51,264 nucleotides of DNA. Source: Candidatus Angelobacter sp. (GTDB taxonomy: Bacteria; Acidobacteriota; Terriglobia; Terriglobales; Acidobacteriaceae). Shown here in pieces: positions 479 through 15,941 of the stretch. A model generated the notes under the pieces. The model was given only the letters and a program-made list of their open reading frames with translations, was not told the origin of the DNA and searched no databases. The stretch's first letter is position 1. Every line of letters begins with the position of its first letter. Where the stretch lies: positions 1-51,264 of the forward strand of contig DASZEU010000238.1 of assembly GCA_035940535.1 (NCBI GenBank). The letters run 5' to 3'. The position numbers were made by a program, and so were the translations under genes.

Positions 479-1843
479 TTACTCCTCGTCCACAACGCCG
501 ATCTTCGACAAACGATATCGCAATGCATTGCGAGAGAGCCCTAACATGCGCGCTGCCTGACTTTTGTTGCCCTGGGCACGACGCAAGGCTTCGCGAATCA
601 TCTCGTCCTCCCACTGTTCCAGGGTCACGCCTTCGGGAAGCAACGGGGCTGTAGCCGTTGCAGCTACCGCCTTCGCAGGACCCGAATCGAGGTGGATGTC
701 GTCAACGTCGATCACCTCATCAGATGAAAGAGCAACGGCGCGTTCCACTGTGTTTTCAAGCTGGCGCACGTTGCCGGGCCAGTGGTAATCCATTAACAGC
801 TTGATAGCAGGTGGTGTAATTGTCTCGATTTCTTTGCCGTTCTGGTGGGTAAAACGTGCGAGGAAATGGTGAACCAGGTCTGGAATATCTTCCTTATGCT
901 CGCGCAACGGAGGAATATCAATGGGCACAACGTTCAACCGGTAATAGAGATCTTCACGGAAGGTGCCCTGCTCCAGCGCCGCCCGCAAGTCCTTGTTGGT
1001 TGCCGCTACCAGGCGGACATCCACTTTAAGAGTCTTGGTCCCCCCCAAACGCTCGAACTCGCGTTCCTGAAGCACCCGCAGCAGCTTCACCTGAATGGGC
1101 GCGGGGACATCGCCGATTTCATCCAGAAAGAGCGAGCCTTTATCGGCCAGTTCAAACTTTCCCAGCTTGCTGTTGTTGGCTCCGGTGAATGCGCCTTTTT
1201 CATACCCGAAGAGCTCGCTCTCAAAAAGATTGTCGGGAATGGCCGTGCTGTTGATCTTGATGAATGGCCCTGAAGAGCGGCGCGAATTCTGATGGATGGC
1301 GCGGGCGATCAGGTCTTTGCCGACTCCGCTCTCGCCGCCTAGCAAGATCGTTGAATTCGTGGGAGCCACGCGCGCCACAACGGCCAGCACCTCTTGCATC
1401 TTGCCGCTGCGGGCAACGATATTCTGGTAGTGGTAGCGTTTGCCGAGGGCTTCGCGAAGGCTGCGATTCTCATCGCGCACCTTCTGAACGTCAAGCTCTT
1501 TGCGAATGACCAGCTTCATCTCCGCCATGGTGAATGGTTTGAGCACATAGTCGCTGGCTCCGGCCTTCATGGCGTCCACCGCGGTCTCCACCGAGCCGTA
1601 GGCTGTCATTACGACGATTGGCACTCCAGCATCCAGACGCTTGGCCTCCTGAAGAAACTCCAGGCCGTTCATCCCGGGCAGTTTGAGGTCGGTCAATACC
1701 AAATCGATGGCCTCTCTGCGCAGGCACTTCAACCCGGTCTCGGCTTCGGCGGCCGTATGTACAACATGCCCCTCTTCTCCCAGGCTGATCTCCAGCAGCC
1801 TGCGCATTTTGGGCTCGTCTTCAACGATCAAGATGGATGACAT
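479..1843 (-). CDS. Sigma-54-dependent response regulator (NtrC/Fis family: REC + AAA+ + HTH)
   Basis: N-terminal receiver (ILIVEDEP...DLVLTDLKLPGMNG). AAA+ with Walker A GESGVGKD and the GAFTGA sigma-54 contact loop. C-terminal Fis-type HTH (QAARMLGLSRNALRYRL). Confidence 0.95.
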   Translation of the reverse strand: MSSILIVEDEPKMRRLLEISLGEEGHVVHTAAEAETGLKCLRREAIDLVLTDLKLPGMNGLEFLQEAKRLDAGVPIVVMTAYGSVETAVDAMKAGASDYVLKPFTMAEMKLVIRKELDVQKVRDENRSLREALGKRYHYQNIVARSGKMQEVLAVVARVAPTNSTILLGGESGVGKDLIARAIHQNSRRSSGPFIKINSTAIPDNLFESELFGYEKGAFTGANNSKLGKFELADKGSLFLDEIGDVPAPIQVKLLRVLQEREFERLGGTKTLKVDVRLVAATNKDLRAALEQGTFREDLYYRLNVVPIDIPPLREHKEDIPDLVHHFLARFTHQNGKEIETITPPAIKLLMDYHWPGNVRQLENTVERAVALSSDEVIDVDDIHLDSGPAKAVAATATAPLLPEGVTLEQWEDEMIREALRRAQGNKSQAARMLGLSRNALRYRLSKIGVVDEE

Positions 1844-1851
1844 GACAAGAA

Positions 1852-3135
1852 TTAATGCAACTTTGCTTCCATTTCGGCGGATGCCGTTTCAGCGACGGCT
1901 TCAGGGAATAAAACTTGAAAGCAAGCACCCTGCCCCGGTTCGCTCGTCACCCGGACTGCGCCCCCGTGCAGGTCAACGAGCTTGGTAACAATCGCCAGCC
2001 CCAGACCTACGCCTGACTGCTTGGTAGTCACAAAGGGATTAAAAATGTGCTCTCGCGATTCTGCCGGAATGCCCGGCCCACTGTCTTCAATTTCCACCGC
2101 TATTTCTTTATGCTCTCCTTTTTCTATCGGATGAATTCTAATCTTCAAATCGCCTCCCGCTTCGCCCATGGCTTCACAAGCATTCAGCAGAAGATTGGTA
2201 AATACCACGTCGCAGAATTCCTCGTCGGCCATGACATTAGGAAGCGCGGGCGCATACTCACGTTGGACATTGACTCTAGTTGCTGCCTTTTGCTCCTGCA
2301 CATATCTCAAAGATTTTTCCACGATGGGCGGAAGCTGCTGCGATCGTAGCTGCATTTGTGATGGACGGGCAAAATCCAGGAAACGGCTGACCAGCGCGCT
2401 CAGGCGGTTTACCTCGGTATAGATATAGCCGGCAAGCTCTCTGGATAACGAGTCAGAGTCGCTAAGTTTTTGGTGAAGGATCTCAGCGGAACCTTTGATC
2501 ACACCCAATGGATTGCGGATTTCATGGGCCAACCCCGCAGAAAGCTGTCCGAGAGCAGCCAAGCGCTCGGCGCGGCGGGCTTCGTCCTGGGCTTTTTTCA
2601 AACTGCGATTAGCCTGGCTCAAGTTTTCTGCTGAGACTCGATAGCGCTGGGTCTGCCACCGCGATTCCATCACGAAGCGATTGACGATCATGCCCACCAA
2701 AAAGAAAAACACAATACGCAGTGAGAGTTCAGCTACGCCCTCAGGCGTCAAACGGTACTGCTTCAGTGCCGGATAGAGATAAGAACAATAGGCTGCCGAG
2801 GTCAACAACGTCCAGAAAAGCGTCCCCAACGGACCAAAATACATGGCGGCCGTCATGATAGGCAGATAGTAAATAGGGTAATAGCTGCTTTTAATTGGCA
2901 CATCACTGGTGTGGACCATGATGAGCGTTGCCAGCGCCAGCTTGATAACCACAGCCAAGGTCTCGCCATAGTGGGGAACAGCCCGGACAAACCTGCCTTC
3001 CAAAAGCTGAAAAGTTCCAATCAACAAAAGAATGACCTGCTTGTGCCATTCCCGCACCGGAGGCAGCAGGGCCAGCACGACCAGAAAAAGCAGCCACAGC
3101 AAGTCGAGCCAGCGAGGATTGGCGCGTTCTTCCAT
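1852..3135 (-). CDS. Membrane-bound sensor histidine kinase
   Basis: About 170-aa hydrophobic N-terminus. H-box LAHEIRNPL. HATPase N/G boxes (LLNACEAM, DSGPGI, GVGLGLAI). Lies 8 nt upstream of the regulator gene. Confidence 0.9.
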   Translation of the reverse strand: MEERANPRWLDLLWLLFLVVLALLPPVREWHKQVILLLIGTFQLLEGRFVRAVPHYGETLAVVIKLALATLIMVHTSDVPIKSSYYPIYYLPIMTAAMYFGPLGTLFWTLLTSAAYCSYLYPALKQYRLTPEGVAELSLRIVFFFLVGMIVNRFVMESRWQTQRYRVSAENLSQANRSLKKAQDEARRAERLAALGQLSAGLAHEIRNPLGVIKGSAEILHQKLSDSDSLSRELAGYIYTEVNRLSALVSRFLDFARPSQMQLRSQQLPPIVEKSLRYVQEQKAATRVNVQREYAPALPNVMADEEFCDVVFTNLLLNACEAMGEAGGDLKIRIHPIEKGEHKEIAVEIEDSGPGIPAESREHIFNPFVTTKQSGVGLGLAIVTKLVDLHGGAVRVTSEPGQGACFQVLFPEAVAETASAEMEAKLH

Positions 3136-3189
3136 GAGCGATAGGAGCTTCTCCTATCGCTCATAATACGGCATATTTGTGAGCGATAG
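3136..3189 (-). promoter_or_regulatory. 5' leader with two mutually exclusive hairpins abutting the kinase start codon
   Basis: Perfect 12-bp stem gagcgataggag (3136-3147) / ctcctatcgctc (3151-3162) ends at the ATG (3135). A third copy, gagcgatag, lies at 3181-3189. Confidence 0.4.
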
Positions 3190-3227
3190 CGAAAGCGCAA
3201 GGTCAACCGCAGAGCAAAACCCCTTTA

Positions 3228-3262
3228 ACCACAGAGGCCACGAAGGAACACGAAGGAAATCA
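3228..3262. repeat. CCTTyGyGG-family intergenic repeat (reverse orientation)
   Basis: ccacagaggccacgaaggaacacgaaggaaatc. Its reverse complement gives the units ccttcgtg.. ccttcgtgg cctctgtgg. Confidence 0.6.
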
Positions 3263-3383
3263 AAACATACTGGCTTAAGCTGCCTAAGTTCTTCGCATGA
3301 CGAAGATTTTTGACTGATAGCAGCGCAGGGCGCTGCAGCGTAGAATCTCAGTTTGGCCATAACTCGTTCAATTTGAGGTTGAT

Positions 3384-3418
3384 TTCCTTCGCGACCTTCG
3401 CGTCCATTGCGGTGAACT
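3384..3418. repeat. CCTTyGyGG-family intergenic repeat (forward orientation)
   Basis: Units ccttcgcga (3386), ccttcgcgt (3395), ccattgcgg (3404), then tgaactg. Exact 9-bp period. Inverted relative to 3228-3262. Confidence 0.6.
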
Positions 3419-3579
3419 GGTTTTGGTTGTCACTCTGAAATTACCCAATTACCAAATCTCACCGCGCAAAATAACCAGTCTTGGTTCGAATGACCAAGTT
3501 GTCCTGCCGGGGGCGGATTATGATCTTGCGGAACGTATCGTCTTTGATCGGTCGCGAGGGATAGTACCTACGAATTCTC

Positions 3580-3608
3580 TTGACAGGTCCCTTATTTCGA
3601 TTATTCTA
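3580..3608 (+). promoter_or_regulatory. Candidate sigma-70 promoter for arsR-arsM
   Basis: TTGACA (3580-3585), 16 nt, TATTCT (3602-3607). Overlaps the 8-bp palindrome ttctagaa and a tcgatt/aatcga inverted repeat. Would leave a very short leader before ATG 3619. Confidence 0.35.
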
Positions 3609-3618
3609 GAAATATAGG

Positions 3619-3972
3619 ATGAATCGATTCATGTCCAAGCCCAACGCCAACGACGTGGCCCGCTATGCGGACATGCTCTCTGCTATGGGAACGGAGACCC
3701 GGCTGCGCATCATGCGGCTGCTTCTGAGCGCGCACCCTGAAGGTTTGGTGGTTGGGGAGATTGGCGAAGAGTTGGAAATTCCCAATTCCACGCTCTCTCA
3801 TCACCTGGATAAGCTCAAGAATGACGGCCTGATCTGCATTCAGCGCGAGGGCACTTTCCTCCGCTGTACGGCCAACACGTCCGCATTGGAAGAACTGCTC
3901 GGATTTTTATACGCCGAGTGCTGCACCCGCAACAAAGCTGTAGAACCGCAGCGTGTTGTCTGCTGTGGTTAG
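3619..3972 (+). CDS. arsR: ArsR/SmtB-family metalloregulator
   Basis: Winged-HTH pattern ([10 protein letters not shown]...[31 protein letters not shown]) with C-terminal cysteines. ATG 3631 is an alternative start. Confidence 0.9.
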
Positions 3973-3981
3973 GAGAGAGCG

Positions 3982-4809
3982 ATGAATACCGAAAACATCA
4001 AGGAAGTCGTCAGGGAAAAATATGGTGAAGCCGCGCGGCGCGTGGTTGCCGGGACAGGAAACTCCTGCTGTGGCGGCTCGCCCTGCGGTACCGAGGTCGA
4101 TCCCATCACCAGGGATTTGTATGACAGCGCGCAAGTGATTGGACTGCCCGAAGCTGCGGTGCGGGCATCGCTGGGCTGCGGAAATCCTACCGCTCTTGCC
4201 CAACTGCATGCGGGCGAAACCGTGCTTGATCTTGGCTCCGGCGGAGGGATCGATGTGTTGCTCTCCGCGCAACGGGTTGGTCCCACGGGCAAAGCTTACG
4301 GCCTCGACATGACGGACGACATGCTGTCCCTAGCGCGCGAGAACCAGCGCAAGGCTGGTGTGGAAAATGTTGAATTCCTCAAGGGTGAGATGGAAAACGT
4401 TCCCCTGCCTGATAACTCCGTGGACGTAATCATCTCCAACTGCGTCATCAACCTCTCTGCCGACAAAGACCGAGTGATGCGTGAGGCCTTCCGAGTGCTG
4501 AAGCCCGGCGGACGCTTTGCGGTTTCCGATGTCGTGGTGCGCGGCCTTGTGCCTGACGATGTTCGCAAGAGCATGCTCTTGTGGGTGGGCTGCATCGCTG
4601 GCGCACTGCAAGAGACGGACTACAGGACAAAACTTGCTGACGCGGGCTTTTCGGCCATCGAGATTGAGCCAACCCGCATTTATAACATCAATGATGCGCG
4701 GACGTTCCTGGGCGCGCAAGGCATCGACGTGGATGCCATCGCTCCCCAGGTTGAAGGCAAGTTCATGAGCGCCTTCGTGCGCGCCACCAAGCCTGTGAAG
4801 TGTTGTTAG
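3982..4809 (+). CDS. arsM: Arsenite S-adenosylmethionine methyltransferase
   Basis: SAM motif [11 protein letters not shown]. ArsM-type cysteine contexts LGCGNP, NCVINL, VGCIAGA. Follows arsR. SD aggagag lies upstream. Confidence 0.85.
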
Positions 4810-4816
4810 CCAGGAA

Positions 4817-4908
4817 ATTGCCATGATTGCCACAAATGCCAAAATTGCCATAATTGAAAATTTCTCTCCAATTATGGCAATTGTGGCAGTTATGGCAATC
4901 CTGGCAAT
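4817..4908. repeat. 92-bp palindrome built from 4 + 4 nine-bp TGCCA/TGGCA units
   Basis: TGCCA at 4819, 4828, 4837, 4846 and TGGCA at 4875, 4884, 4893, 4902. The 40-bp arms 4817-4856 and 4869-4908 pair with 4 mismatches. Lies between the convergent arsM and PilZ genes. Confidence 0.8.
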
Positions 4909-4909
4909 G

Positions 4910-5629
4910 CTAGATAGTCATCCGCCGGTCGAGCCAGTTCTTAAGATGTTGATATGCGCCCTCGGCCAGAGAGTGAAACTTCACGCCAACCAGCCCTTCG
5001 GTATTGACCCAGGTGACCTCTCCCCGGCCCTGGATGGTTCCACCGAATGGAAGCTCAAACGAGAAACCAATCGTGGCTCCCAGTTGCTGCAACTCAGGGC
5101 ACCAGATGGCCATGCCTCCTTCGCTCAGGTTCGACATGGTGGCCCGGGGATCTTTGGCGTCCGTTTTCAAGTTGACCGGCGCCACCAGGGGATAGCGGAA
5201 ATAGCGGCGCTTCTCCGCGGCCATCAGGGGCGCTGCCGACTGGAATAGCTGGCCAATCTTCTCCGTAGTGAAAGGATGATGGACCACAAAATTCGCGCCC
5301 GCACTCAAGGCCAGAGTGACCTCGCTCGAAGAGGTAACGCAGGCGAACACCACCGAAGACTTGTTGGATTTTCCATTGCGAACCGCCTCAATCAGTTCCA
5401 TTGCGCCCGCAACCCGCAGGTCAACGATGATGCCGTCCAACTTTCTACGCGCAATATACTCCAAGGCGGAGGCCGGGCTGGGAGCGCAGCTCAATTTGCC
5501 GCCGGAATCGGCAACTGCTTTCGTAATGGCGCGGAGAGCAGGGTAGTCATCGCACACCACTAGAAAATCCAGGCCATGTCCCGCTCTACGAGCGGCTCCG
5601 GCAGCGACCGTATCTGTTTCTGGAAGCAC
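4910..5629 (-). CDS. Receiver-like domain + PilZ domain protein
   Basis: N-terminal REC-like pattern (FLVVCDD...GIIVDLRV). C-terminal PilZ motifs (RRYFRYP...DLSEGG-like SNLSEGGMAI). GTG start. Confidence 0.75.
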   Translation of the reverse strand: MLPETDTVAAGAARRAGHGLDFLVVCDDYPALRAITKAVADSGGKLSCAPSPASALEYIARRKLDGIIVDLRVAGAMELIEAVRNGKSNKSSVVFACVTSSSEVTLALSAGANFVVHHPFTTEKIGQLFQSAAPLMAAEKRRYFRYPLVAPVNLKTDAKDPRATMSNLSEGGMAIWCPELQQLGATIGFSFELPFGGTIQGRGEVTWVNTEGLVGVKFHSLAEGAYQHLKNWLDRRMTI

Positions 5630-5737
5630 GAGTCAAAGTGTAGCGCAGTATCCTGAACAAGCAATTTTTTTAACCGGGAATTCACGCAAAATAGTAATAA
5701 TTAGAATTTACTAATCTTACAAAGGGGATTGGAAAGC

Positions 5738-6144
5738 ATGACCACAAATGTTCTTCATATCAATGAGAAAACCTACGGCCAGTTGCTTCTCGGACGCTCC
5801 CTCACATCATCCATACTGCGGAGGAATACGAGCGATTCACGGCCGAGTTGATGGAACTGGACGAGCGTGAGAATCCTTCGCCGGAAGAAAAAGCGTTAGC
5901 CGACTTGCTGGCCATGCTGATTGAGCAGTTTGAAGAGCGTCGCTACCCCATCCGAAAGGGCACGCCTGTGCAAGTGTTGCACCATTTGATGGAGGCCCGT
6001 GGTCTCACGCAAAAGGACCTCTGTGAGATTTTTGGCTCAAAAGGAATTACGTCTGAGGTCGTGCGCGGTAAGCGTTCCATCAGCAAAACCCACGCCAAGA
6101 AGCTAGCTTCTTTTTTTAAAGTCAGCGCGGGTCTGTTCATCTGA
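5738..6144 (+). pseudogene. HigA-family HTH antitoxin, apparently frameshifted, with no higB partner
   Basis: The ORF from 5848 ends GSKGITSEVVRGKRSISKTHAKKLASFFKVSAGLFI (HigA C-terminal pattern). The same frame is open back to 5767 (LPHIIHTAEEYERFTAEL) but has no start codon. ATG 5738 is in another frame and stops at 5849. Confidence 0.6.
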
Positions 6145-9046: not shown

Positions 9047-9514
9047 ATGAACCCTACATACGCTCGTTTTGGAATAGCCATTGCGGTAATTGTTTTAGGA
9101 TTAGGATGCATGGCCTACATTGGGGTCCAGCAGAGCAAGAGCTATTACGTGCAAATCAAGGATTTACGCTCTTTGGGAAATGATGCTTACGAAAGGCATC
9201 TGCGCGTCGCCGGGAATGTACAGCCTGGGAGCATCCACACGAGAGGGACCAACGCTGATTTTGTGCTGGAGGAAAAAGGCCAGCTTCTAAACGTTAGCTA
9301 CAAAGGCGCTGAGCCCCCTCCCGACACTTTCAAAGATAGCGCCGTGGCCCTGGTAGTGGGCGAGTATGGTAAAGACGGCGTATTTCACGCAAACCAGATC
9401 CAGGCCAAGTGCGCTTCGAAATATAAAGCCCAGGCGGAGCAACAGGCGGCTGGCGCAACAGCTCCTGCTCCCCAAGCGGTTCCGGCGGCACAGGCACAAC
9501 CCAAGGGATACTGA
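9047..9514 (+). CDS. ccmE: Cytochrome c maturation haem chaperone CcmE, CxxxY variant
   Basis: N-terminal membrane anchor and OB-fold pattern (LRVAGNVQPGSI...FVL..). The haem-binding position reads AKCASKY (Cys122...Tyr126) instead of AKHDxxY. Confidence 0.9.
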   Translation: MNPTYARFGIAIAVIVLGLGCMAYIGVQQSKSYYVQIKDLRSLGNDAYERHLRVAGNVQPGSIHTRGTNADFVLEEKGQLLNVSYKGAEPPPDTFKDSAVALVVGEYGKDGVFHANQIQAKCASKYKAQAEQQAAGATAPAPQAVPAAQAQPKGY

Positions 9515-9522
9515 GGTCAACG

Positions 9523-10185
9523 CTGATAGCTTCGGCCCCGCCCGTCCAAGTTGAAAACGTCTCTAAGATTTACGGCCGAACGGCTGCGCTTCGAGATGTA
9601 TCATTGGAATTGGATCATGGCCGGTTCTATGTTCTGCGCGGCGAAAATGGCGCTGGCAAATCGACTCTGCTGAGGATGGTAGCCGGCCTAAGCGAGCCAA
9701 CTCAGGGCCAGATTCGCATCTTTGGACTAAAGACCAGCGAGGCACGGAGTCACCTTGGCTATATGGCCCACGCACCCCTGGTCTACGATGAGTTTTCCGG
9801 TATGGAGAACCTGCGCTTCTTCGCAAAACTCTATGGCATCAATTCTGACGAGCCGTTGGCAGAGGCCCTCCGGCGTGTAGGGCTTGATCCACAGCTCACA
9901 CGCAGGGCCGGACAATATTCCCAGGGAATGCGGCAACGCTTGTCTCTAGCGCGGTCGATCTTTCATTCCCCTAAGTTGTTGTTGCTCGACGAGCCGTTTT
10001 CCAACGTTGATCCAGAATCGGCCAATCAGATTTCCAAGCTACTGGCCGCCATGCGCACTGCGGGCACGACGATTCTCCTTATCACCCATCAACTGGGATT
10101 GCTGGCCGACATAGCCGATGAGTTCCTGTTTCTCTCCGCCGGAGAGCTTGTAAGCCGCAGCGCGGCCCCCCGGGTGACCGCATGA
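9523..10185 (+). CDS. ccmA: Haem exporter ABC ATPase CcmA (start uncertain, probably non-canonical)
   Basis: Walker A GENGAGKST, signature YSQGMRQRL, Walker B LLLLDEP. The ABC N-terminal strand VQVENVSKIYGRTAALRDVSL lies upstream of the track start (TTG 9604). GAGG (9513-9516) sits 6 nt before CTG 9523. Confidence 0.8.
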   Translation: MIASAPPVQVENVSKIYGRTAALRDVSLELDHGRFYVLRGENGAGKSTLLRMVAGLSEPTQGQIRIFGLKTSEARSHLGYMAHAPLVYDEFSGMENLRFFAKLYGINSDEPLAEALRRVGLDPQLTRRAGQYSQGMRQRLSLARSIFHSPKLLLLDEPFSNVDPESANQISKLLAAMRTAGTTILLITHQLGLLADIADEFLFLSAGELVSRSAAPRVTA

Positions 10186-10198
10186 ATAGGGTGAGTGC

Positions 10199-10876
10199 AT
10201 GAGTTCGATTGCAGCCTTGACTTGGGCCAATGTCACTAAAGACCTGCGGTTGGAGTGGCGCTCGCGGGACGTGCTGAACTCCATGCTGTTTTTCGCTTTG
10301 CTGGTTGTGGTCATCTTCAGTTTTGCCTTTGATCTTTCGGCCGAAGAGGCCCGGCGCATGTCTGGGGGATTGATCTGGACCGCTTTTCTCTTTTGTACAG
10401 TGATGGCGTTGAACCAGTCGTGGGCGCGTGAACTGCGGAATGGGGTTCTGGATGCCTTCCGGGTATCTCCGGCTCCTCCAGAGGCTCTTTTTCTTGGCAA
10501 GTGTCTAGGAAATTTCCTTCTCGTGGGATTGCTTGAATGCCTTATGGCCCCGCTGTTTGTCTTGTTTTACAATCTTTCTTCGGCGGGTTCTTTGCTCCAA
10601 CTGGCGCTGGTCTTCCTGCTGGGCACATGGGCGCTGATCGTGAATGGAACATTCTTTGCCGCCATGTCGATTCGCACCCGCAACCGTGAAATGATGCTGC
10701 CGCTGGTGCTGTTCCCGATTTCGATCCCGGCGGTCCTGAGCATGGTCAATGCTACCGTGGGAATCTTGACCGGCGAATTTTCCGCGAGCGGCCCGATTAA
10801 GCTGCTGGCGATCTATTGCGTGGTGTTTACCACGGTTTGTTTCGTACTATTTGAAACGGTGTTAAACGCAGAATGA
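10199..10876 (+). CDS. ccmB: Haem exporter permease CcmB
   Basis: Six-TM CcmB-like pattern. Position between ccmA and ccmC. 4-nt overlap with ccmC. Confidence 0.9.
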   Translation: MSSIAALTWANVTKDLRLEWRSRDVLNSMLFFALLVVVIFSFAFDLSAEEARRMSGGLIWTAFLFCTVMALNQSWARELRNGVLDAFRVSPAPPEALFLGKCLGNFLLVGLLECLMAPLFVLFYNLSSAGSLLQLALVFLLGTWALIVNGTFFAAMSIRTRNREMMLPLVLFPISIPAVLSMVNATVGILTGEFSASGPIKLLAIYCVVFTTVCFVLFETVLNAE

Positions 10877-11742
10877 AATCAAAACTTTTTCCCTTCTTTA
10901 CCGGCTTGGTGGTGATGTTGCTGGCTTACGGCGCATACCAGGCTCTGTTTGCTGCGCCAACCGAAGAAACGATGGGCGATGTGCAGCGCATCTTCTACTA
11001 CCACGTCCCTTCAGCGTGGACGGCCATGATTCTTTTTCTGGTAAATTTTTGCGCCTCGGCCGTTTACTTTTTCACACGTAGTCCCAAGGCGGATGCCTGG
11101 GCACTTACAGCCGCCGAGGTTGGAGTCGTCTTTTGCACCGTCGTCCTGGTAACCGGTCCCATCTGGGCGCGGCCGGTATGGGGCATCTGGTGGACCTGGG
11201 ATTTGCGCCTGACGACTACGCTCATCATGTGGCTCCTCTATGTGAGTTACCTGTTGCTGCGCCGCTCGTCTGAGCCGGGCTCGTCCTCGACGCTGGCTAC
11301 GGTCTTTGCGCTGAGCGCTGCAGTTGACATACCTATCGTGTGGATGGCGATCCGCTGGTATAGCGTTCATACGCAGCATCCCCAGCCGGTGTTTGGAAAC
11401 GGCCCGAACACAGGTCTTGATCCGCAGATGAAAATTGCCTTGTTTGCCAATTGGTTCGCTTTTATGGCCTTTGCCGCTTTGATCTTTTGGGTCCGCTATT
11501 CGGTGGAGCGCACCACGCAGTCCGTGGCCAGGGCGTATGTGCAAAAGGCGTCGCAGCGAACAGCCGCAGTGCTGGGTATGTCCACTCTTTTCCTCTTTCA
11601 GTCGGGCCGTACTCCTGACTCACGTCATGTTTTTCTGATCAGCGCCTACGCCATTACCTGGATCATTCACATCACTTATTTTGTGATTATTGGCCGCAAG
11701 ATCGCGCGATTAAAAGCGGAACAGGCGGAGCTGAAACTGTAG
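10873..11742 (+). CDS. ccmC: Haem exporter/haem lyase subunit CcmC with fused CcmD-like C-terminus
   Basis: WWD motif WGIWWTWDLRLT and conserved His contexts. The extra ~45-aa tail HVFLISAYAITWIIHITYFVIIGRKIARLKAEQAEL matches the CcmD pattern. Confidence 0.9.
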   Translation: MKSKLFPFFTGLVVMLLAYGAYQALFAAPTEETMGDVQRIFYYHVPSAWTAMILFLVNFCASAVYFFTRSPKADAWALTAAEVGVVFCTVVLVTGPIWARPVWGIWWTWDLRLTTTLIMWLLYVSYLLLRRSSEPGSSSTLATVFALSAAVDIPIVWMAIRWYSVHTQHPQPVFGNGPNTGLDPQMKIALFANWFAFMAFAALIFWVRYSVERTTQSVARAYVQKASQRTAAVLGMSTLFLFQSGRTPDSRHVFLISAYAITWIIHITYFVIIGRKIARLKAEQAELKL

Positions 11743-11753
11743 CTTTAAGAATG

Positions 11754-12863
11754 TCACTGCAATGAAGCGCTGGCAACTTTTGACGCCAACTCCAGGCGGT
11801 CAATAACCCCTTCCAGGTTGCCATCGCGCACGATGACAACGAATGGCAAACGCCGTCGTATGATCTCGGCATTCAGCAGAGGCCTGTGCTCTGATCCGAA
11901 TTGCTCCAAAATCTCGCCTTGCTGCCTGATTCCCAACTCGCGCAGGATTGGGGGAGTAAGGACCTGTATCACATCAGATTCCTTTTGAGCGGCGAAAACT
12001 GACAGCACGGCAGGTCGGTAGTTGCTTATCATAAGACTGATATTGTTCCCATAGCCGATCGACGCTTGCCGGCATTGCAGATATGCCAGCTCAAGTTTTG
12101 GCTCGGCTTTGGTAAGAGCGCGGTGAATTTCGGCAGGCGACGCCACGGTTAGCACTCGGCCACCTGGATCAAGCAATACGAACTGACGGATCTCTGTAAA
12201 ATCCGACGCTAACGCTGCCACAAGATGCAGCCTGGTATTCCACCACGGAGTTGGGCCAAGACGTATGGCGACGAATTCAGCCGAGGCCAGATCCTGAAGT
12301 TGCTGCTGGATATTTGGAAGGAACGATGGTCCGAGGTCCGGTGCAGACTTGATTTGCTCAATGGCAGCCATGGTCGCAACCGGCTTTGTCGATTGATGCT
12401 GAATCACTGAGATCAAGACCTGCTTGGCGAGGTCGTCAGGAGTTTTAAAGAATGCCACCCAGCGTTCTGCCTTCAAGCGGTCCCGCAAGTCATGAATGCG
12501 TTTACCATCGTTTTGCTGCTGCTCGGCATCGCGCTGAGAATCCGGCCAAGGAAAGTCCTCAGCTAACATGAAGATCAGACGTGGCCTTTTCGCGTGTCCT
12601 GCAGCTAGATACTCGAGTTCGGTAATGGATTTTCCTTCCGGGTTGTCTTCAGCAGGAACGTAACCAAACTTCCAGGCTAATATGCCGACGTAAATATCGC
12701 ATGCTGCTGCGTCCGCTTCGCAAGCAGCCCTGGGCCGATCGTCGCGTGCAGGATATTTCTCCATGGCATCGACGTTGTAGTTACATTTGCGCAACGAATC
12801 AGCCACTGCACGCCGATAATCCTTGAGGTCTTCGTAGGTGGACGAGATATAGATAGTGGTCAT
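11754..12863 (-). CDS. DUF4062 (NDT/TIR-like) N-terminal domain + CBS-pair-like C-terminal region
   Basis: N-terminus IYISSTYEDLKDYRRAV...CDIYVGILAWKFGYV...SITELEYLAA..PRLIFM is the DUF4062 pattern. The C-terminal half holds two CBS-like stretches (IRQFVLLDPGGRVLTVASPAEIHRAL; LPFVVIVRDGNLEGVIDRLELASKV). Confidence 0.7.
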   Translation of the reverse strand: MTTIYISSTYEDLKDYRRAVADSLRKCNYNVDAMEKYPARDDRPRAACEADAAACDIYVGILAWKFGYVPAEDNPEGKSITELEYLAAGHAKRPRLIFMLAEDFPWPDSQRDAEQQQNDGKRIHDLRDRLKAERWVAFFKTPDDLAKQVLISVIQHQSTKPVATMAAIEQIKSAPDLGPSFLPNIQQQLQDLASAEFVAIRLGPTPWWNTRLHLVAALASDFTEIRQFVLLDPGGRVLTVASPAEIHRALTKAEPKLELAYLQCRQASIGYGNNISLMISNYRPAVLSVFAAQKESDVIQVLTPPILRELGIRQQGEILEQFGSEHRPLLNAEIIRRRLPFVVIVRDGNLEGVIDRLELASKVASASLQ

Positions 12864-12942
12864 TTATGCCAAGTGGTAAAAGCTACCAAATCGGGACAGT
12901 TTGGCCAAGACAGTCAAAAGCTGGGCCTTAGCTGTCGACCAA

Positions 12943-13227
12943 TTAGCGGTAAATCTCGCGCCGGTGACCAATCGTGAGGACTAGCACAATCAATTTCGTG
13001 TCCTGGATGTCAGCAATAATACGGTAATCGCCAACACGATACTTCCAGAAATTGCCGAATTGCTCTCCTCTAAGGGCAGATCCAATTGACCGTGGATTGT
13101 CTAAAGAAGCTACTCTTTGAGTAAGGAAAGCAAGTATCCGGTGCTGAATCTGTCTATCGAGATTTTTTAGCTGCTTTGATGCGCTTGCGGACAGCTCGAC
13201 CTGCCAGCTCTTTTTTGTCGAAACCAA
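12943..13227 (-). CDS. relE: RelE/ParE-family type II toxin
   Basis: SWQVELSASASKQLKNLDRQIQHRI...YRVGDYRIIADIQDTKLIVLVLTIGHRREIY. TTG start. Confidence 0.9.
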   Translation of the reverse strand: MVSTKKSWQVELSASASKQLKNLDRQIQHRILAFLTQRVASLDNPRSIGSALRGEQFGNFWKYRVGDYRIIADIQDTKLIVLVLTIGHRREIYR

Positions 13228-13435
13228 GGTCTTGAATCACCTCGTCAAGAGTATAGGTTCGCTCTTCAGCATTGCCGATGCGCTCTTTAACATGGTGGGC
13301 CAAATATAGGTCTTCCATGTCGTTAATGTGCTGCAAGACGGCTTCACGAACATAGAACGTCTTGGTCCGACCTGTCTTCTCGGCCAAGGCATTAAGTCGT
13401 TTTTCAATGGATTCGGGCAACCGAACAGCCAACAT
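13154..13435 (-). CDS. Ribbon-helix-helix (CopG/RelB-type) antitoxin
   Basis: MLAVRLPESIEKRLNALAEKTGRTKTFYVREAVLQHI is the RHH pattern. SD ggag lies upstream of ATG 13435. The track's 248-aa ORF is an artefactual upstream extension. Confidence 0.85.
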   Translation of the reverse strand: MLAVRLPESIEKRLNALAEKTGRTKTFYVREAVLQHINDMEDLYLAHHVKERIGNAEERTYTLDEVIQDLGFDKKELAGRAVRKRIKAAKKSR

Positions 13436-13446
13436 AACAATCTCCA

Positions 13447-13460
13447 CTATACAAGTATAG
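13447..13460. promoter_or_regulatory. Candidate relBE operator palindrome
   Basis: ctatac-aa-gtatag, a perfect 6-bp inverted repeat 12 nt upstream of the antitoxin ATG. Confidence 0.4.
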
Positions 13461-13564
13461 CAGATGCCTGCGCGAGTACCTTGACCACAATAAAAATGGT
13501 TGGCTGGCTTTGAATGCGAGTTGCACATTTGAAAGACAGAGCGGAAGCATTTATCTTCTACCGC

Positions 13565-14344
13565 ATGCAAATTCAAGGCAAAGTTGTGATTGTAACTGGT
13601 GGTTCCAATGGAATTGGCCGGGCCCTGTCCAAGGCTTTCGCAGCCCAGGGAGCGCGGGCCGTGGTGATCGCCGACCAGGACGAAAAGAGCGGCCAGCAAG
13701 TGGCCCAAGAGATCAAGGCGACCTTTCTGGCAACCGACGTCTCTAAGGAGGCTGATGTTCAGCGGCTGGTTGAAAACACAACCAAGCAGTTTGGCCAGGT
13801 GGATATATTTTGCTCCAATGCCGGCATTGGCGTTGATGGCGGGCCTGAAGCCCCCAATTCTGAATGGCAGCGGATATGGGAGATCAACGTGATCGCCCAC
13901 GTCTATGCTGCCCGCGCCGTGCTGCCCCAGATGCTGGCCCGCAAAGAAGGCTACCTGGTGCAGACGGTTTCAGCCGCCGGACTGCTTTCCCAAATCGGGT
14001 CAGCCCCCTATTCGGTCACCAAGCACGCGGCTCAGAGTTTTGCCGAATGGCTGGCGATTACTTATGGCGACCAAGGCATCCGTGTCTCGGCGCTTTGTCC
14101 TCAAGGGGTGCGCACCAACATGCTGCTGAAGGCCGAGTTTGGTGGAGGAGCGTTCCTCATGGAAGGCGCATTGGAACCTGACCAAGTAGCGGCAGAGGTC
14201 ATGAAGGCCATTGGAGAGGAAAAGTTCTTGATCCTTCCGCACCCCGAGGTGGCCAGATATTTCCAGAACCGAGCCAATGACCACGAACGCTGGCTGCGCG
14301 GCATGAGAAAGCTGCAAGCCAAGATGGCGCCGTTGAAGAAGTAG
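13565..14344 (+). CDS. Short-chain dehydrogenase/reductase (SDR)
   Basis: TGGSNGIG cofactor motif right after ATG 13565. YxxxK (YSVTKHA). NAG motif. Confidence 0.9.
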
Positions 14345-14347
14345 CAT

Positions 14348-15157
14348 TTATTTTTGGCATTTTGGGCAATAGTGGGTACCTCTTCCTGCTACTACGATTT
14401 TCTTGATGTGGGTTTTACAAACCAGGCAGGGTTCGCCGCCGCGCCCGTAGGCGCGGTGCTGGAGTTGGAAGAAGCCTTCTTGGCCTTCGGCATCTACGTA
14501 GTCCGAAATGGACGAGCCTCCAGCGGCGATGGCCTCCTTCAGTACTTCCTGAAGAGCGGCATGGAGTCTGGTTGCTTCCTGCCGGGTCAAAGAACCAGCG
14601 CGTCGTCGCGGACGGATGCCGGCGCGGAACAGGCTTTCATCAGCATAGATGTTTCCTACACCGTGCAGCAGTTTCTGGTTCAGCAACGCTCCCTTGATGG
14701 GGGCCTTGCGTGCCTTGAACAGTTGAATAAACTCTAGAAGGCTGACCAGCAGCGGCTCGGTTCCGGGACCGGCAAAGCCGGTTTGCTGTACTTCGAGGCG
14801 GCCGAATCGCCGAGGATCGACAAACCTCAATTCTCTTCCCGATTTCAACCGGGCTACGAGGTGCGTGTGATTGGCCATTTCGGTTTCCGGGGCAGCCACC
14901 AACATGCGCCCTGTCATCCCCAGGTGTACGATCCATTGGTTTTTTGCGCCGTTAGGGCCAGAAAGATCAAAGACGATATGCTTTCCAACTCGGCGTACCT
15001 GATCCACTCGCGCGCCTTCCAGTACCGCAGCGATGGTGGCGGCTGGTGATTTCAATGGCTCCCGCTTCTTGCCAATCCACACCGACTCAATGCGGTCTCC
15101 TGCAACCCTCTTGTGCAGGCCGCGTGCAATGGTTTCGACTTCTGGTAGTTCTGGCAT
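14348..15157 (-). CDS. mutM: Formamidopyrimidine-DNA glycosylase
   Basis: N-terminal MPELPEVE. H2TH region. C-terminal zinc finger CLVC...CPKCQ. Confidence 0.95.
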   Translation of the reverse strand: MPELPEVETIARGLHKRVAGDRIESVWIGKKREPLKSPAATIAAVLEGARVDQVRRVGKHIVFDLSGPNGAKNQWIVHLGMTGRMLVAAPETEMANHTHLVARLKSGRELRFVDPRRFGRLEVQQTGFAGPGTEPLLVSLLEFIQLFKARKAPIKGALLNQKLLHGVGNIYADESLFRAGIRPRRRAGSLTRQEATRLHAALQEVLKEAIAAGGSSISDYVDAEGQEGFFQLQHRAYGRGGEPCLVCKTHIKKIVVAGRGTHYCPKCQK

Positions 15158-15480
15158 TCTGTCAAAATCCTTTCGCTTATGCTCGAAGTCATTTCGACGT
15201 GGCGATTGATTGTTTTACCGCGATCAAGGCGTTTTTGAATGCTTCGGGATCATTTGCAGAGACCAAGATACGGTCGAAGCTTCTGGATTTCGAAAACATT
15301 CTTTGGACCGATAATCGCAACGAGCAGGGCTGCGAGGCAGATGAAATCGGTGAGGCGGCGCGTGGTACTCACATTTCATTCTACTCTGGGCAGCAGCAGT
15401 TTCCCCCTGCAAATATTTCGCATCCAACTCTATGATCTGCAAAACATCGCAATTGAGGAGTCCAAAAAGGGGGAAGATCA

Positions 15481-15789
15481 ATGCGTCTGATCGATAATCT
15501 GCGCAATGCTGAGCAGAAAGGCGTGCGAACCGTGCGTCGGGGCATGGAACGCGTCCGTGAGGAATGGGGGGACATAGAGCGGCGGATCCGGCAACGGATG
15601 CGCATCTATCCCCAAAAACTAAAGAATGTTGCAGCTTCCCGCTCGGAGCACGAGCAAGAAGCGGACATCATGGACCAGGGAATCCCATCAGGCATAGGCG
15701 AAGCAGCAGAATTGGAATCGAAGAAGCCGATCGTCTCTGTGCACGGGCGGGACATCCGCGATGAAGATCTTGATAAGTCCGCAGCGTGA
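15481..15789 (+). CDS. Hypothetical charged protein
   Basis: 102-aa ORF with SD-like gggggaag 5 nt upstream. No recognisable domain. Confidence 0.45.
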   Translation: MRLIDNLRNAEQKGVRTVRRGMERVREEWGDIERRIRQRMRIYPQKLKNVAASRSEHEQEADIMDQGIPSGIGEAAELESKKPIVSVHGRDIRDEDLDKSAA

Positions 15790-15794
15790 AGAAG

Positions 15795-15845
15795 CACTCA
15801 GCAGTCAGCACTCGGCATTCAGCCCGCTTGCATTTTGGGCTGAAG
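15795..15845. repeat. TCAGC-type short repeats with hairpin
   Basis: tcagc at 15798, 15805 and 15819. Hairpin tcagccc (15819-15825) / gggctga (15837-15843). A similar string (ttagcattcagcaggtcagcacagc) lies at 21788-21815. Confidence 0.35.
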
Positions 15846-15941
15846 GGTCACAGGGTTCTGGGCATGGTTAGTTAAGTGATGCCTTGCACAACTTGTTTTT
15901 GAAACACACTCCAATGAGCCGGTGATCGAAGTGATTGTCGG

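Follow-up and report, generated by a model that had tools for sequence, protein, structure and literature searches.

Only in 2026 were DUF4062 proteins recognised as TIR-like NAD+ glycohydrolases (NADases), both in defences against phages and in TEP1, a protein of the human vault. Abortive infection by the single-gene defence KpSwz (Swarozyc) requires E97 as well as the auxiliary domain, and the protein is activated when this auxiliary domain, a winged helix-turn-helix (HTH), binds the phage portal (Osinski et al., bioRxiv 10.64898/2026.05.01.722283). Portal binding in this one lineage is the only case in which NADase switching by a DUF4062 protein is understood. Evangelion (Eva01-Eva04) comprises further single-gene DUF4062 defences, which carry 'diversified AUX regions' (AUX, auxiliary) and are often found near toxin-antitoxin (TA) modules; the same work sets out a catalytic E-Y motif made up of E87 and Y88 (Ibarra-Chavez et al., bioRxiv 10.64898/2026.06.25.731849). 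The single-gene DUF4062 defences require the core together with a lineage-specific AUX (bioRxiv 10.64898/2026.05.01.722283; bioRxiv 10.64898/2026.06.25.731849). A sensor of another kind is found in DS-11, a validated one-protein CBS+HEPN defence (DefensePredictor, Science 2026, PMC13092281); its predicted adenine-contacting Tyr is essential, and its authors state that no previously characterised defence had a CBS domain (PMC13092281). Here, we describe a gene for a 369-amino-acid (aa) protein in a stretch of 51,264 nucleotides (nt) from Candidatus Angelobacter sp. (assembly GCA_035940535.1, contig DASZEU010000238.1), referred to below as the window. We consider it reasonably likely that this protein is a stand-alone, horizontally mobile DUF4062 conflict protein (probably anti-phage and acting by abortive infection) in which a TIR-like NADase would be gated by a CBS-pair-like sensor.

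The CBS-like sensor arm is what is new here; DUF4062 defences and the concept of a core with a variable AUX are already known. The original prediction, made from the sequence alone, had spoken of an undescribed system, and this has to be narrowed, given that single-gene DUF4062 defences whose auxiliary domains vary have been in the literature since 2026. The part that stands concerns the auxiliary domain itself: a CBS or Bateman auxiliary domain is unmentioned in the text of both DUF4062 preprints and in the one supplement searched, that of Osinski et al. Auxiliary domains were annotated in that study by means of Pfam (bioRxiv 10.64898/2026.05.01.722283), and the C-terminal domain (C-domain) of the window protein is invisible to Pfam. 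The gene and its parts are arranged as follows, in window coordinates.

11754-12863, minus strand: DUF4062-CBS-like gene, 369 aa, stop codon at 11754-11756
12390-12863, minus strand: residues 1-158, DUF4062/TIR-like domain with five strands and five helices
12612-12614, minus strand: GAG codon of E84, the predicted catalytic glutamate, in the motif S79-I-T-E82-L-E84-Y85
11757-12287, minus strand: residues 193-369, divergent CBS-pair (Bateman)-like domain, assigned at the level of the predicted fold and belonging to no Pfam family
12231-12245, minus strand: W207-W208-N-T210-R211, family signature of the C-domain, a candidate site for a ligand or an interface, kept in both fusion classes described below

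The N-terminal half matches PF13271 (DUF4062) over residues 4-88 (E 2.7e-20; 72.8 bits, cut-off 24.7); the domain is in truth ~164 aa long, about twice the span of the Pfam model. A family profile (A1), built from 49 full-length homologs and searched against PDB sequences, aligned residues 3-153 with the TIR/DUF4062 domain of KpSwz (10wc_A, E 1.8e-8; the Swarozyc structures are PDB 10wc, 11cq and 11cv) and also matched the TIR-like domain of human TEP1 (11gz_A, E 3.6e-5). Y5, S7, S8, E35, R40, D51, S79, T81 and E84 are invariant in all 49 homologs, and position 82 is Glu in 47 of them. With construct boundaries taken from the Osinski et al. supplement, E84 falls on the catalytic glutamates of both proteins: in KpSwz it pairs with Ala84 of the E97A chain (residue 97 of the protein, as the chain corresponds to construct 15-C carrying E97A), and in TEP1 with position 115 of the chain (E1008, as the 220-residue chain corresponds to construct 895-1113 plus one residue). 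Both proteins have been shown experimentally to be NADases, KpSwz dependent on E97 and TEP1 on E1008 (Osinski et al., bioRxiv 10.64898/2026.05.01.722283). In the AlphaFold2 model of the full 369-aa protein (pLDDT 85.9, pTM 0.80), strands at residues 3-8, 30-33, 57-62, 95-100 and 135-139 with helices between them form a five-strand, five-helix TIR-like fold, for which Foldseek returned the TIR domains of TIR-STING, RPS4/RRS1, SPARTA and SARM1, along with nucleoside 2'-deoxyribosyltransferase (NDT), from the PDB at probabilities of 0.99-1.0. Because PF13271, the profile, the E84 alignment and the TIR fold agree, the DUF4062 signature that had been proposed for this gene is confirmed, with a Glu at the catalytic position of NDT and TIR domains. 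By homology, residues 1-158 are thus predicted to act as a TIR-like NADase whose catalytic residue is E84.

The C-terminal half (residues ~160-369) found no match in Pfam, NCBIfam or PADLOC. A model of residues 160-369 (alignment A2; pLDDT 88.7, pTM 0.85) contains two beta-alpha-beta-beta-alpha units, the first made of strand 197-201, helix 209-222, strands 227-231 and 237-241 and helix 243-253, and the second of strand 316-321, helix 331-335, strands 341-346 and 349-355 and helix 356-368; a helical insert of ~45 residues separates the two, and a helical linker connects the DUF4062 domain with the C-domain. When the C-domain was compared with the PDB by Foldseek, the top 50 matches were all CBS-pair (Bateman) proteins, with 4noc_A the best of them (E 3.6e-4, probability 1.0) and further matches to 4esy, ClC-Ka, OpuCA, the S-adenosylmethionine-binding (SAM) domain of cystathionine beta-synthase, CbpB, AcuB and AMPK gamma. 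The two stretches with a CBS beta-beta-alpha pattern that had been read from the sequence are therefore matched by two modelled units, and the top 50 Foldseek matches of the domain are CBS-pair proteins only. The best PDB sequence match of the C-domain is the CBS protein MJ0100 (E 0.46), on whose ribose-binding T-x-x-D the motif S242-x-x-E245 is placed, and D355-x-x-E358 lies at the equivalent place as the motif-2 counterpart of the ribose-binding site. The best BFVD fold match is also a CBS protein but is non-significant. Since the fold matches CBS while the sequence support is suggestive, we label the C-terminal half a divergent CBS-pair-like domain, which on its model is a CBS member by fold and not by sequence. 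CBS pairs typically bind adenosyl ligands and dimerise. A STING-like C-domain, prompted by long TIR-STING alignments in the full-length fold search, was ruled out: TIR-STING chains rank among the top full-length matches owing to the TIR half, and the C-domain alone has only CBS pairs among its top 50 PDB matches.

Set beside the described systems, the window protein shares with Swarozyc a homologous N-terminal DUF4062/TIR-like domain (E84 corresponding to E97), a single-gene layout of N-terminal effector, helical linker and C-terminal auxiliary domain, and a patchy distribution of the horizontal-transfer type. The auxiliary domains differ: that of KpSwz is a portal-binding winged HTH, whereas that of the window protein is a ~175-aa CBS-pair-like domain whose profile finds no match in the KpSwz chains even at E<=10. 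The match to KpSwz ends at residue 153, and the winged-HTH AUX that marks Swarozyc sensu stricto is not found in the window protein. With Evangelion it has in common a conserved DUF4062 core and a diversified, co-adapted AUX, frequent proximity to TA modules and mobile genes, the E-Y motif (E87-Y88 in Eva01, E84-Y85 in the window protein), an aromatic residue at the N-terminus (Y5, corresponding to F11) and, in the Q/W/E region, a Glu that is conserved (M34-E35 in the window protein); the architecture is of the Evangelion type, a single gene for a DUF4062 core and an AUX with no obligatory partner. The AUX of Eva01, however, is short and linked to the sensing of recombination intermediates or DNA, whereas the one described here is much larger and CBS-like; Eva01 is plasmid-borne in Firmicutes, whereas the lineage of the window protein is chromosomal, in soil Acidobacteriota and others. 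DS-11 likewise combines, in one polypeptide, a cell-damaging effector with a CBS-type module proposed to gate it, but its effector is a HEPN RNase and its CBS domain is recognisable, in contrast to the predicted TIR-like NADase and the CBS domain seen at fold level only in the window protein. The abortive-infection or NAD-depletion role once suggested for this gene now has, in Swarozyc and Evangelion, a direct experimental DUF4062 precedent.

The C-domain also occurs outside DUF4062 proteins. Searching exhaustively with the A2 profile gave 672 clusters at 50% identity with E<=1e-3, 299 of which had E<=1e-10. Of the hits listed, 87 have 90 or more residues ahead of the C-domain (C-domain HMM E 1e-20 to 1e-37); 33 of these proteins have DUF4062 and 54 do not. 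In the latter class, two strongly hydrophobic segments of ~19 residues each stand at the N-terminus in 51 of 53 aligned members (alignment A4), whereas no such segment is present in 61 of 62 proteins of the DUF4062 class or in the window protein; we refer to the two groups as the two-transmembrane (2TM) and DUF4062 fusion classes. One A4 member (P0258) combines TIR_2, 2TM and C-domain, and Pfam recognises nothing in the A4 class besides this TIR_2. Both classes keep W207, W208, T210, R211, L212, L214, P243, E258, Y261, E295 and R356. The 2TM-CBS-like proteins (A4, P0157...P0264; loci L094-L173) come from soil metagenomes, are ~300-330 aa long and invisible to Pfam, and are encoded by stand-alone genes. 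A conserved partner gene for this class was rejected, as an all-vs-all BLAST and Pfam scan of 94 neighbours revealed no recurrent family such as a cyclase or TIR. A candidate stand-alone C-domain protein, P0114 (206 aa), is actually the downstream half of a frameshifted full-length gene. The C-domain family shared between DUF4062 and 2TM proteins appears to be undescribed.

In pairing with either an NADase or a membrane module, the C-domain resembles the sensors of abortive-infection systems such as TIR-STING/TM-STING and PycTIR/PycTM, and effector swapping is known for STING, SAVED and cNMP sensors. The same likeness extends to ThsA, which occurs as SIR2-SLOG or 2TM-Macro; the STING, cNMP-binding, SLOG and Macro sensors, however, answer a messenger from an adjacent cyclase or TIR gene, whereas the window protein has no conserved signal-generating partner and a CBS-like fold. 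By this analogy, the C-domain would be the input and the N-domain the output, and we regard sensor swapping as the strongest new argument for such a division of labour. The lineage of the window protein would have a well-conserved switch different from portal binding, one that hundreds of other proteins couple to a membrane effector.

In the mechanism we propose, the CBS-like module (residues ~193-369), acting through the helical linker, would keep the NADase off until a cue arrives; most plausibly, a ligand- or partner-induced rearrangement of C-domain dimers would then let the TIR-like domains assemble, with NAD+ depletion and abortive infection as the expected result. More tentatively, and as something we hold to be possible rather than probable, the C-domain may found an unrecognised family of CBS-derived small-molecule sensors that lack a dedicated signal synthase, are coupled to an NADase or a two-helix membrane effector in single-gene systems, and would recognise infection from a shift in an endogenous adenosyl metabolite (for instance NAD+/ADP-ribose, ATP/AMP or Ap4A); the signature proposed for this family is WW-x-TR-L ... 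P ... E-x-x-Y ... E ... R. SARM1 offers a eukaryotic parallel, its TIR NADase being kept inactive by an attached domain that senses NAD+/NMN. The likeness is a functional analogy, that of a metabolite-gated NADase, and the SARM1 TIR domain is among the fold matches; its ARM regulatory fold and its SAM (sterile alpha motif) oligomerisation domain set it apart, with no homology outside the TIR-like fold. If metabolite sensing is true, the family would provide a tractable bacterial model of metabolite-gated NADases with SARM1 logic, and a new sensor family for defence-system catalogues, which Pfam, PADLOC v2 and NCBIfam miss today; if the metabolite is endogenous, a SARM1-like 'metabolic guard' logic would exist in bacteria.

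The cue need not be a metabolite. In a doubtful but serious alternative, the NADase effector is the same and the CBS-like domain no longer binds a small molecule, recognising a phage protein or a nucleic acid instead, in keeping with the two characterised DUF4062 defences, both of which sense phage macromolecular cues (the portal for KpSwz; recombination intermediates, to which Eva01 is linked). Direct phage-protein sensors usually diversify fast, whereas the C-domain is 40-70% identical across phyla. Its residues can be read either way: the canonical CBS ribose-binding positions are not kept across the family, and WW-x-TR, E258, Y261, E295 and R356 match no known CBS ligand motif, yet the conserved Trp, Arg and Tyr would fit a nucleotide pocket, and the top 50 fold matches are without exception CBS pairs that bind ligands. 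The gene has no linked enzyme dedicated to making a signal, as this alternative would have it, but a CBS module acting on an effector has a precedent in DS-11, where the predicted adenine-contacting Tyr is essential (PMC13092281).

Several observations weigh against the reading of the 369-aa protein as a CBS-gated NADase of the defence repertoire. The CBS assignment comes from a predicted structure with modest Foldseek scores (E 3.6e-4, TM 0.35-0.64 with the upper value taken on the target, root-mean-square deviation 5-9 A), the Pfam CBS model has no match to the window protein at E<=10 and reaches at best E 0.16 in its homologs, in only 3 of 28 of them, and the internal repeat of CBS1 and CBS2 is aligned by hhalign in the expected register with non-significant E-values of 0.14-0.56. 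The [ST]xx[DE] ribose-binding positions, S242/E245 and D355/E358, vary in the 2TM class. No PADLOC v2 or NCBIfam model matches the full protein, and several homolog loci lie among ordinary metabolic genes. A DUF4062 domain is also no guarantee of activity, the human DUF4062 proteins NWD1, NWD2 and NPHP3 being inactive in vitro (bioRxiv 10.64898/2026.05.01.722283) and Eva02 having given no protection (bioRxiv 10.64898/2026.06.25.731849).

The distribution of the gene bears on its role. There are 313 homologs, mostly full length at ~368 aa with 40-69% identity, and the two-domain DUF4062 and C-domain architecture is kept in more than 100 of them. When 185,579 species genomes were scanned and the best 80 loci kept, full-length matches were found at 14 loci (one cut by a contig end), the other 66 matching in the DUF4062 half only. 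These full-length matches, with up to 71% identity, span at least four phyla (Actinomycetota, Acidobacteriota, Pseudomonadota and Planctomycetota), their hosts being Acidimicrobiaceae (71% identity), Alphaproteobacteria, Bradyrhizobium, Roseiarcus, Piscinibacter, Gammaproteobacteria, several Acidobacteriota, Thermoleophilia and Pirellulaceae. The distribution is patchy and of the horizontal-transfer type. The proposal for this gene was to be given up if its homologs occupied syntenic core-genome positions; instead, the contexts of 16 full-length homologs all differ, and close relatives carry other cargo in the same slot, so that a syntenic core gene was rejected and the 369-aa gene is accessory and horizontally mobile. 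Phage-borne relatives are likewise unsupported: a scan of IMG/VR viral contigs confirmed none, which is neutral for a defence role, and the BFVD fold search gave no significant match.

This pattern is hard to square with a housekeeping enzyme. CBS pairs regulate the metabolic enzymes IMPDH, CBS and AMPK, DUF4062 is distantly related to nucleoside 2-deoxyribosyltransferases, and metabolic genes flank some homolog loci, all of which would suit an NDT-like NAD or nucleoside enzyme under CBS-type energy-charge control with no part in conflict. We think this very improbable, given full-length genes in only 14 of the best 80 loci from so many genomes, scattered over at least four phyla at high identity, the absence of the gene at the same site in close relatives, and a frameshifted copy in one lineage; a metabolic enzyme would also be hard to reconcile with finding its sensor fused to a 2TM module. 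The frameshifted copy (L176 3519-4621, also L177) is split by 1 nt into two open reading frames (ORFs), one of 146 aa with DUF4062 and one of 206 aa with the C-domain. The split, which 11 contigs share, adjoins CAP12/PCTIR-TIR, TIR_2 and TPR genes and may represent either a decaying copy or a tolerated split.

The 16 full-length homologs have neighbours of many kinds (WD40, amidohydrolase, Crp-HTH, GGDEF-GAF, carboxyltransferase and others). No gene is conserved next to the DUF4062-CBS homologs across these 16 loci, and neither is a signal-making partner. The most frequent neighbour family is TIR_2, with 5 of the 150 ORFs within 4.5 kb; phmmer and jackhmmer located three of these five, the last two TIRs being too divergent, and TIR neighbours were identified at 4 of 17 loci (L002, L007, L011 and L176). 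Such neighbours recall Thoeris, in which case the CBS-like domain would be the receptor for an ADP-ribose-derived signal from a separate TIR protein and the DUF4062 or 2TM part a ThsA-like effector. The pairing of one sensor with an NADase or a 2TM part found here mirrors the ThsA types. At L011 (421-5519), in an Acidimicrobiaceae metagenome-assembled genome with the closest genome homolog (71%), a gene for a ThsB-like TIR (PADLOC 6.8e-40), one for a 957-aa WD40 protein and the DUF4062-CBS gene are co-directional with gaps of 43 and 78 nt, and could form an operon. We nevertheless judge a Thoeris-like arrangement improbable: the window slot has no TIR gene, nor do most loci, TIR_2 accounts for only 1 of 94 neighbours of the 2TM class, and the TIR neighbours are of different families and orientations, as co-location in defence islands predicts.

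Two further loci illustrate the surroundings in which homologs occur. At L004 (9297-17107), the homolog lies beside insertion sequence elements and transposases and a Tn7-like TnsB/TniB/TniQ set, after which comes a gene for a RES-domain toxin, and this suggests transposon carriage; an integrase fragment is found near one further homolog. At L007 (600-13700), a dense conflict island with genes for a patatin, SLATT_2, a 1198-aa TIR-WD40 protein and a DUF433/DUF5615 TA pair surrounds the homolog, and another DUF4062 protein, 405 aa long and distinct in type, is also encoded there.

In the window, the 369-aa gene follows two smaller genes on the same strand, and the layout of relB, relE and the 369-aa gene between the ccm operon and an SDR/mutM pair that had been described earlier is present at these coordinates:

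13154-13435, minus strand: relB-like ribbon-helix-helix antitoxin gene, 93 aa, NF048017
12943-13227, minus strand: RelE/ParE-family toxin gene, 94 aa, TTG start, PF05016
13447-13460, no strand assigned: inverted repeat CTATAC-NN-GTATAG, possible RelB operator, 5' of relB
11743-13513, no strand assigned: cargo slot between ccmC and the SDR gene, delimited by the synteny break and G+C content
9047-11742, plus strand: ccmE-ccmA-ccmB-ccmC, one flank of the cargo, with ccmC itself at 10873-11742
13514-14344, plus strand: SDR gene, the other flank of the three-gene cargo
14348-15157, minus strand: mutM, next after the SDR gene

The identification of relBE is sound because the scores for NF048017 and PF05016 exceed their cut-offs: RelB matches the NCBIfam equivalog NF048017 with 101.4 bits (cut-off 50; E 2.4e-29) over residues 5-73 only, and RelE matches PF05016 with 65.9 bits (cut-off 23; E 5.2e-18), while its score against TIGR02385 RelE_StbE, 26.7 bits, is slightly under the cut-off of 27.9. 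The antitoxin gene comes first and overlaps relE by 74 nt (13154-13227), its tail of 20 basic, Lys/Arg-rich codons past the end of the RelB model reaching into relE. An assembly error as the source of this extension was ruled out, since three independent metagenome contigs containing the window locus (99.7-99.9% identical) are collinear and without indels. The only start of relE is TTG, with a Shine-Dalgarno-like GAGGTG motif 10 nt upstream, and gene callers left relE uncalled on the identical metagenome contig L091. Upstream of relB, the palindrome put forward as its operator is real, a 6+6 inverted repeat confirmed by reading the sequence at 13447-13460, but it is not statistically distinctive: 7-8% of equally long windows or region shuffles contain a 6+6 inverted repeat (~0.07 per 78-nt window), and by statistics alone it is therefore no more than chance. 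Only by its location is it a possible operator, lying 12 nt ahead of the relB ATG across a TATACT box that resembles a -10 element.

A gap of 79 nt separates relE from the 369-aa gene, and the original prediction had treated relBE and the effector as one functional module. In its strongest form, relB, relE and the 369-aa gene would make up a three-gene module, with the TA pair regulating or addicting the NADase or with the NADase serving as a second RelB-controlled toxin. The common strand would allow for this, as would the 79-nt gap, in which neither a terminator nor a sigma-70 promoter is predicted (a scan that is uninformative for an acidobacterium), and it is possible that the three genes are co-transcribed in this strain; they are also absent together from relatives, and Eva01 loci are often near TA modules (bioRxiv 10.64898/2026.06.25.731849). 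In 90 related loci, however, tblastn with the window RelB and RelE (E<=1e-3) found no homolog of either, so that the relBE adjacency is not a conserved feature and a conserved linkage was rejected; the G+C content of relBE is below that of the 369-aa gene, and the homologs of the latter are single genes with unrelated neighbours. The functional module is thus unsupported, and a three-gene unit seems to us highly unlikely. The relBE genes are instead an independent type II TA pair in the same insertion slot, co-resident with the DUF4062-CBS gene and not its partner, and their incidental adjacency is a caution for calls made by 'guilt by association'.

The homologs of the window SDR point to a Candidatus Angelobacter-like acidobacterium, and the slot itself was compared with close relatives. 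In L174 and L175, the backbone of ccmABC ... SDR-mutM-MerR-DnaJ is kept, and the cargo of the gap between ccmC and the SDR gene differs: in L174, whose SDR is 90% identical, the slot (1047-6000) holds genes for a cupredoxin, a multicopper oxidase and a ROK protein, and in L175 (GCA_035295685.1) a single 104-aa ORF (5348-6000). Nucleotide similarity ends at window position 11736 for L174 and 11391 for L175, and resumes at 13512 and 13526, respectively. G+C content is 0.46-0.49 in relBE and 0.51-0.54 in the 369-aa gene, compared with 0.55-0.59 in the flanks. Because the relatives' cargo differs, similarity breaks and G+C deviates, the three genes are strain-specific cargo; in Ca. Angelobacter-like Acidobacteriota, the interval from ccmC to the SDR gene is a slot whose cargo varies. 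The interval between mutM and MerR also differs in content: the window has no ORF of at least 150 aa at the equivalent place (15158-15941), whereas L174 (8299-9774) carries a 491-aa reverse transcriptase (RVT_1) gene.

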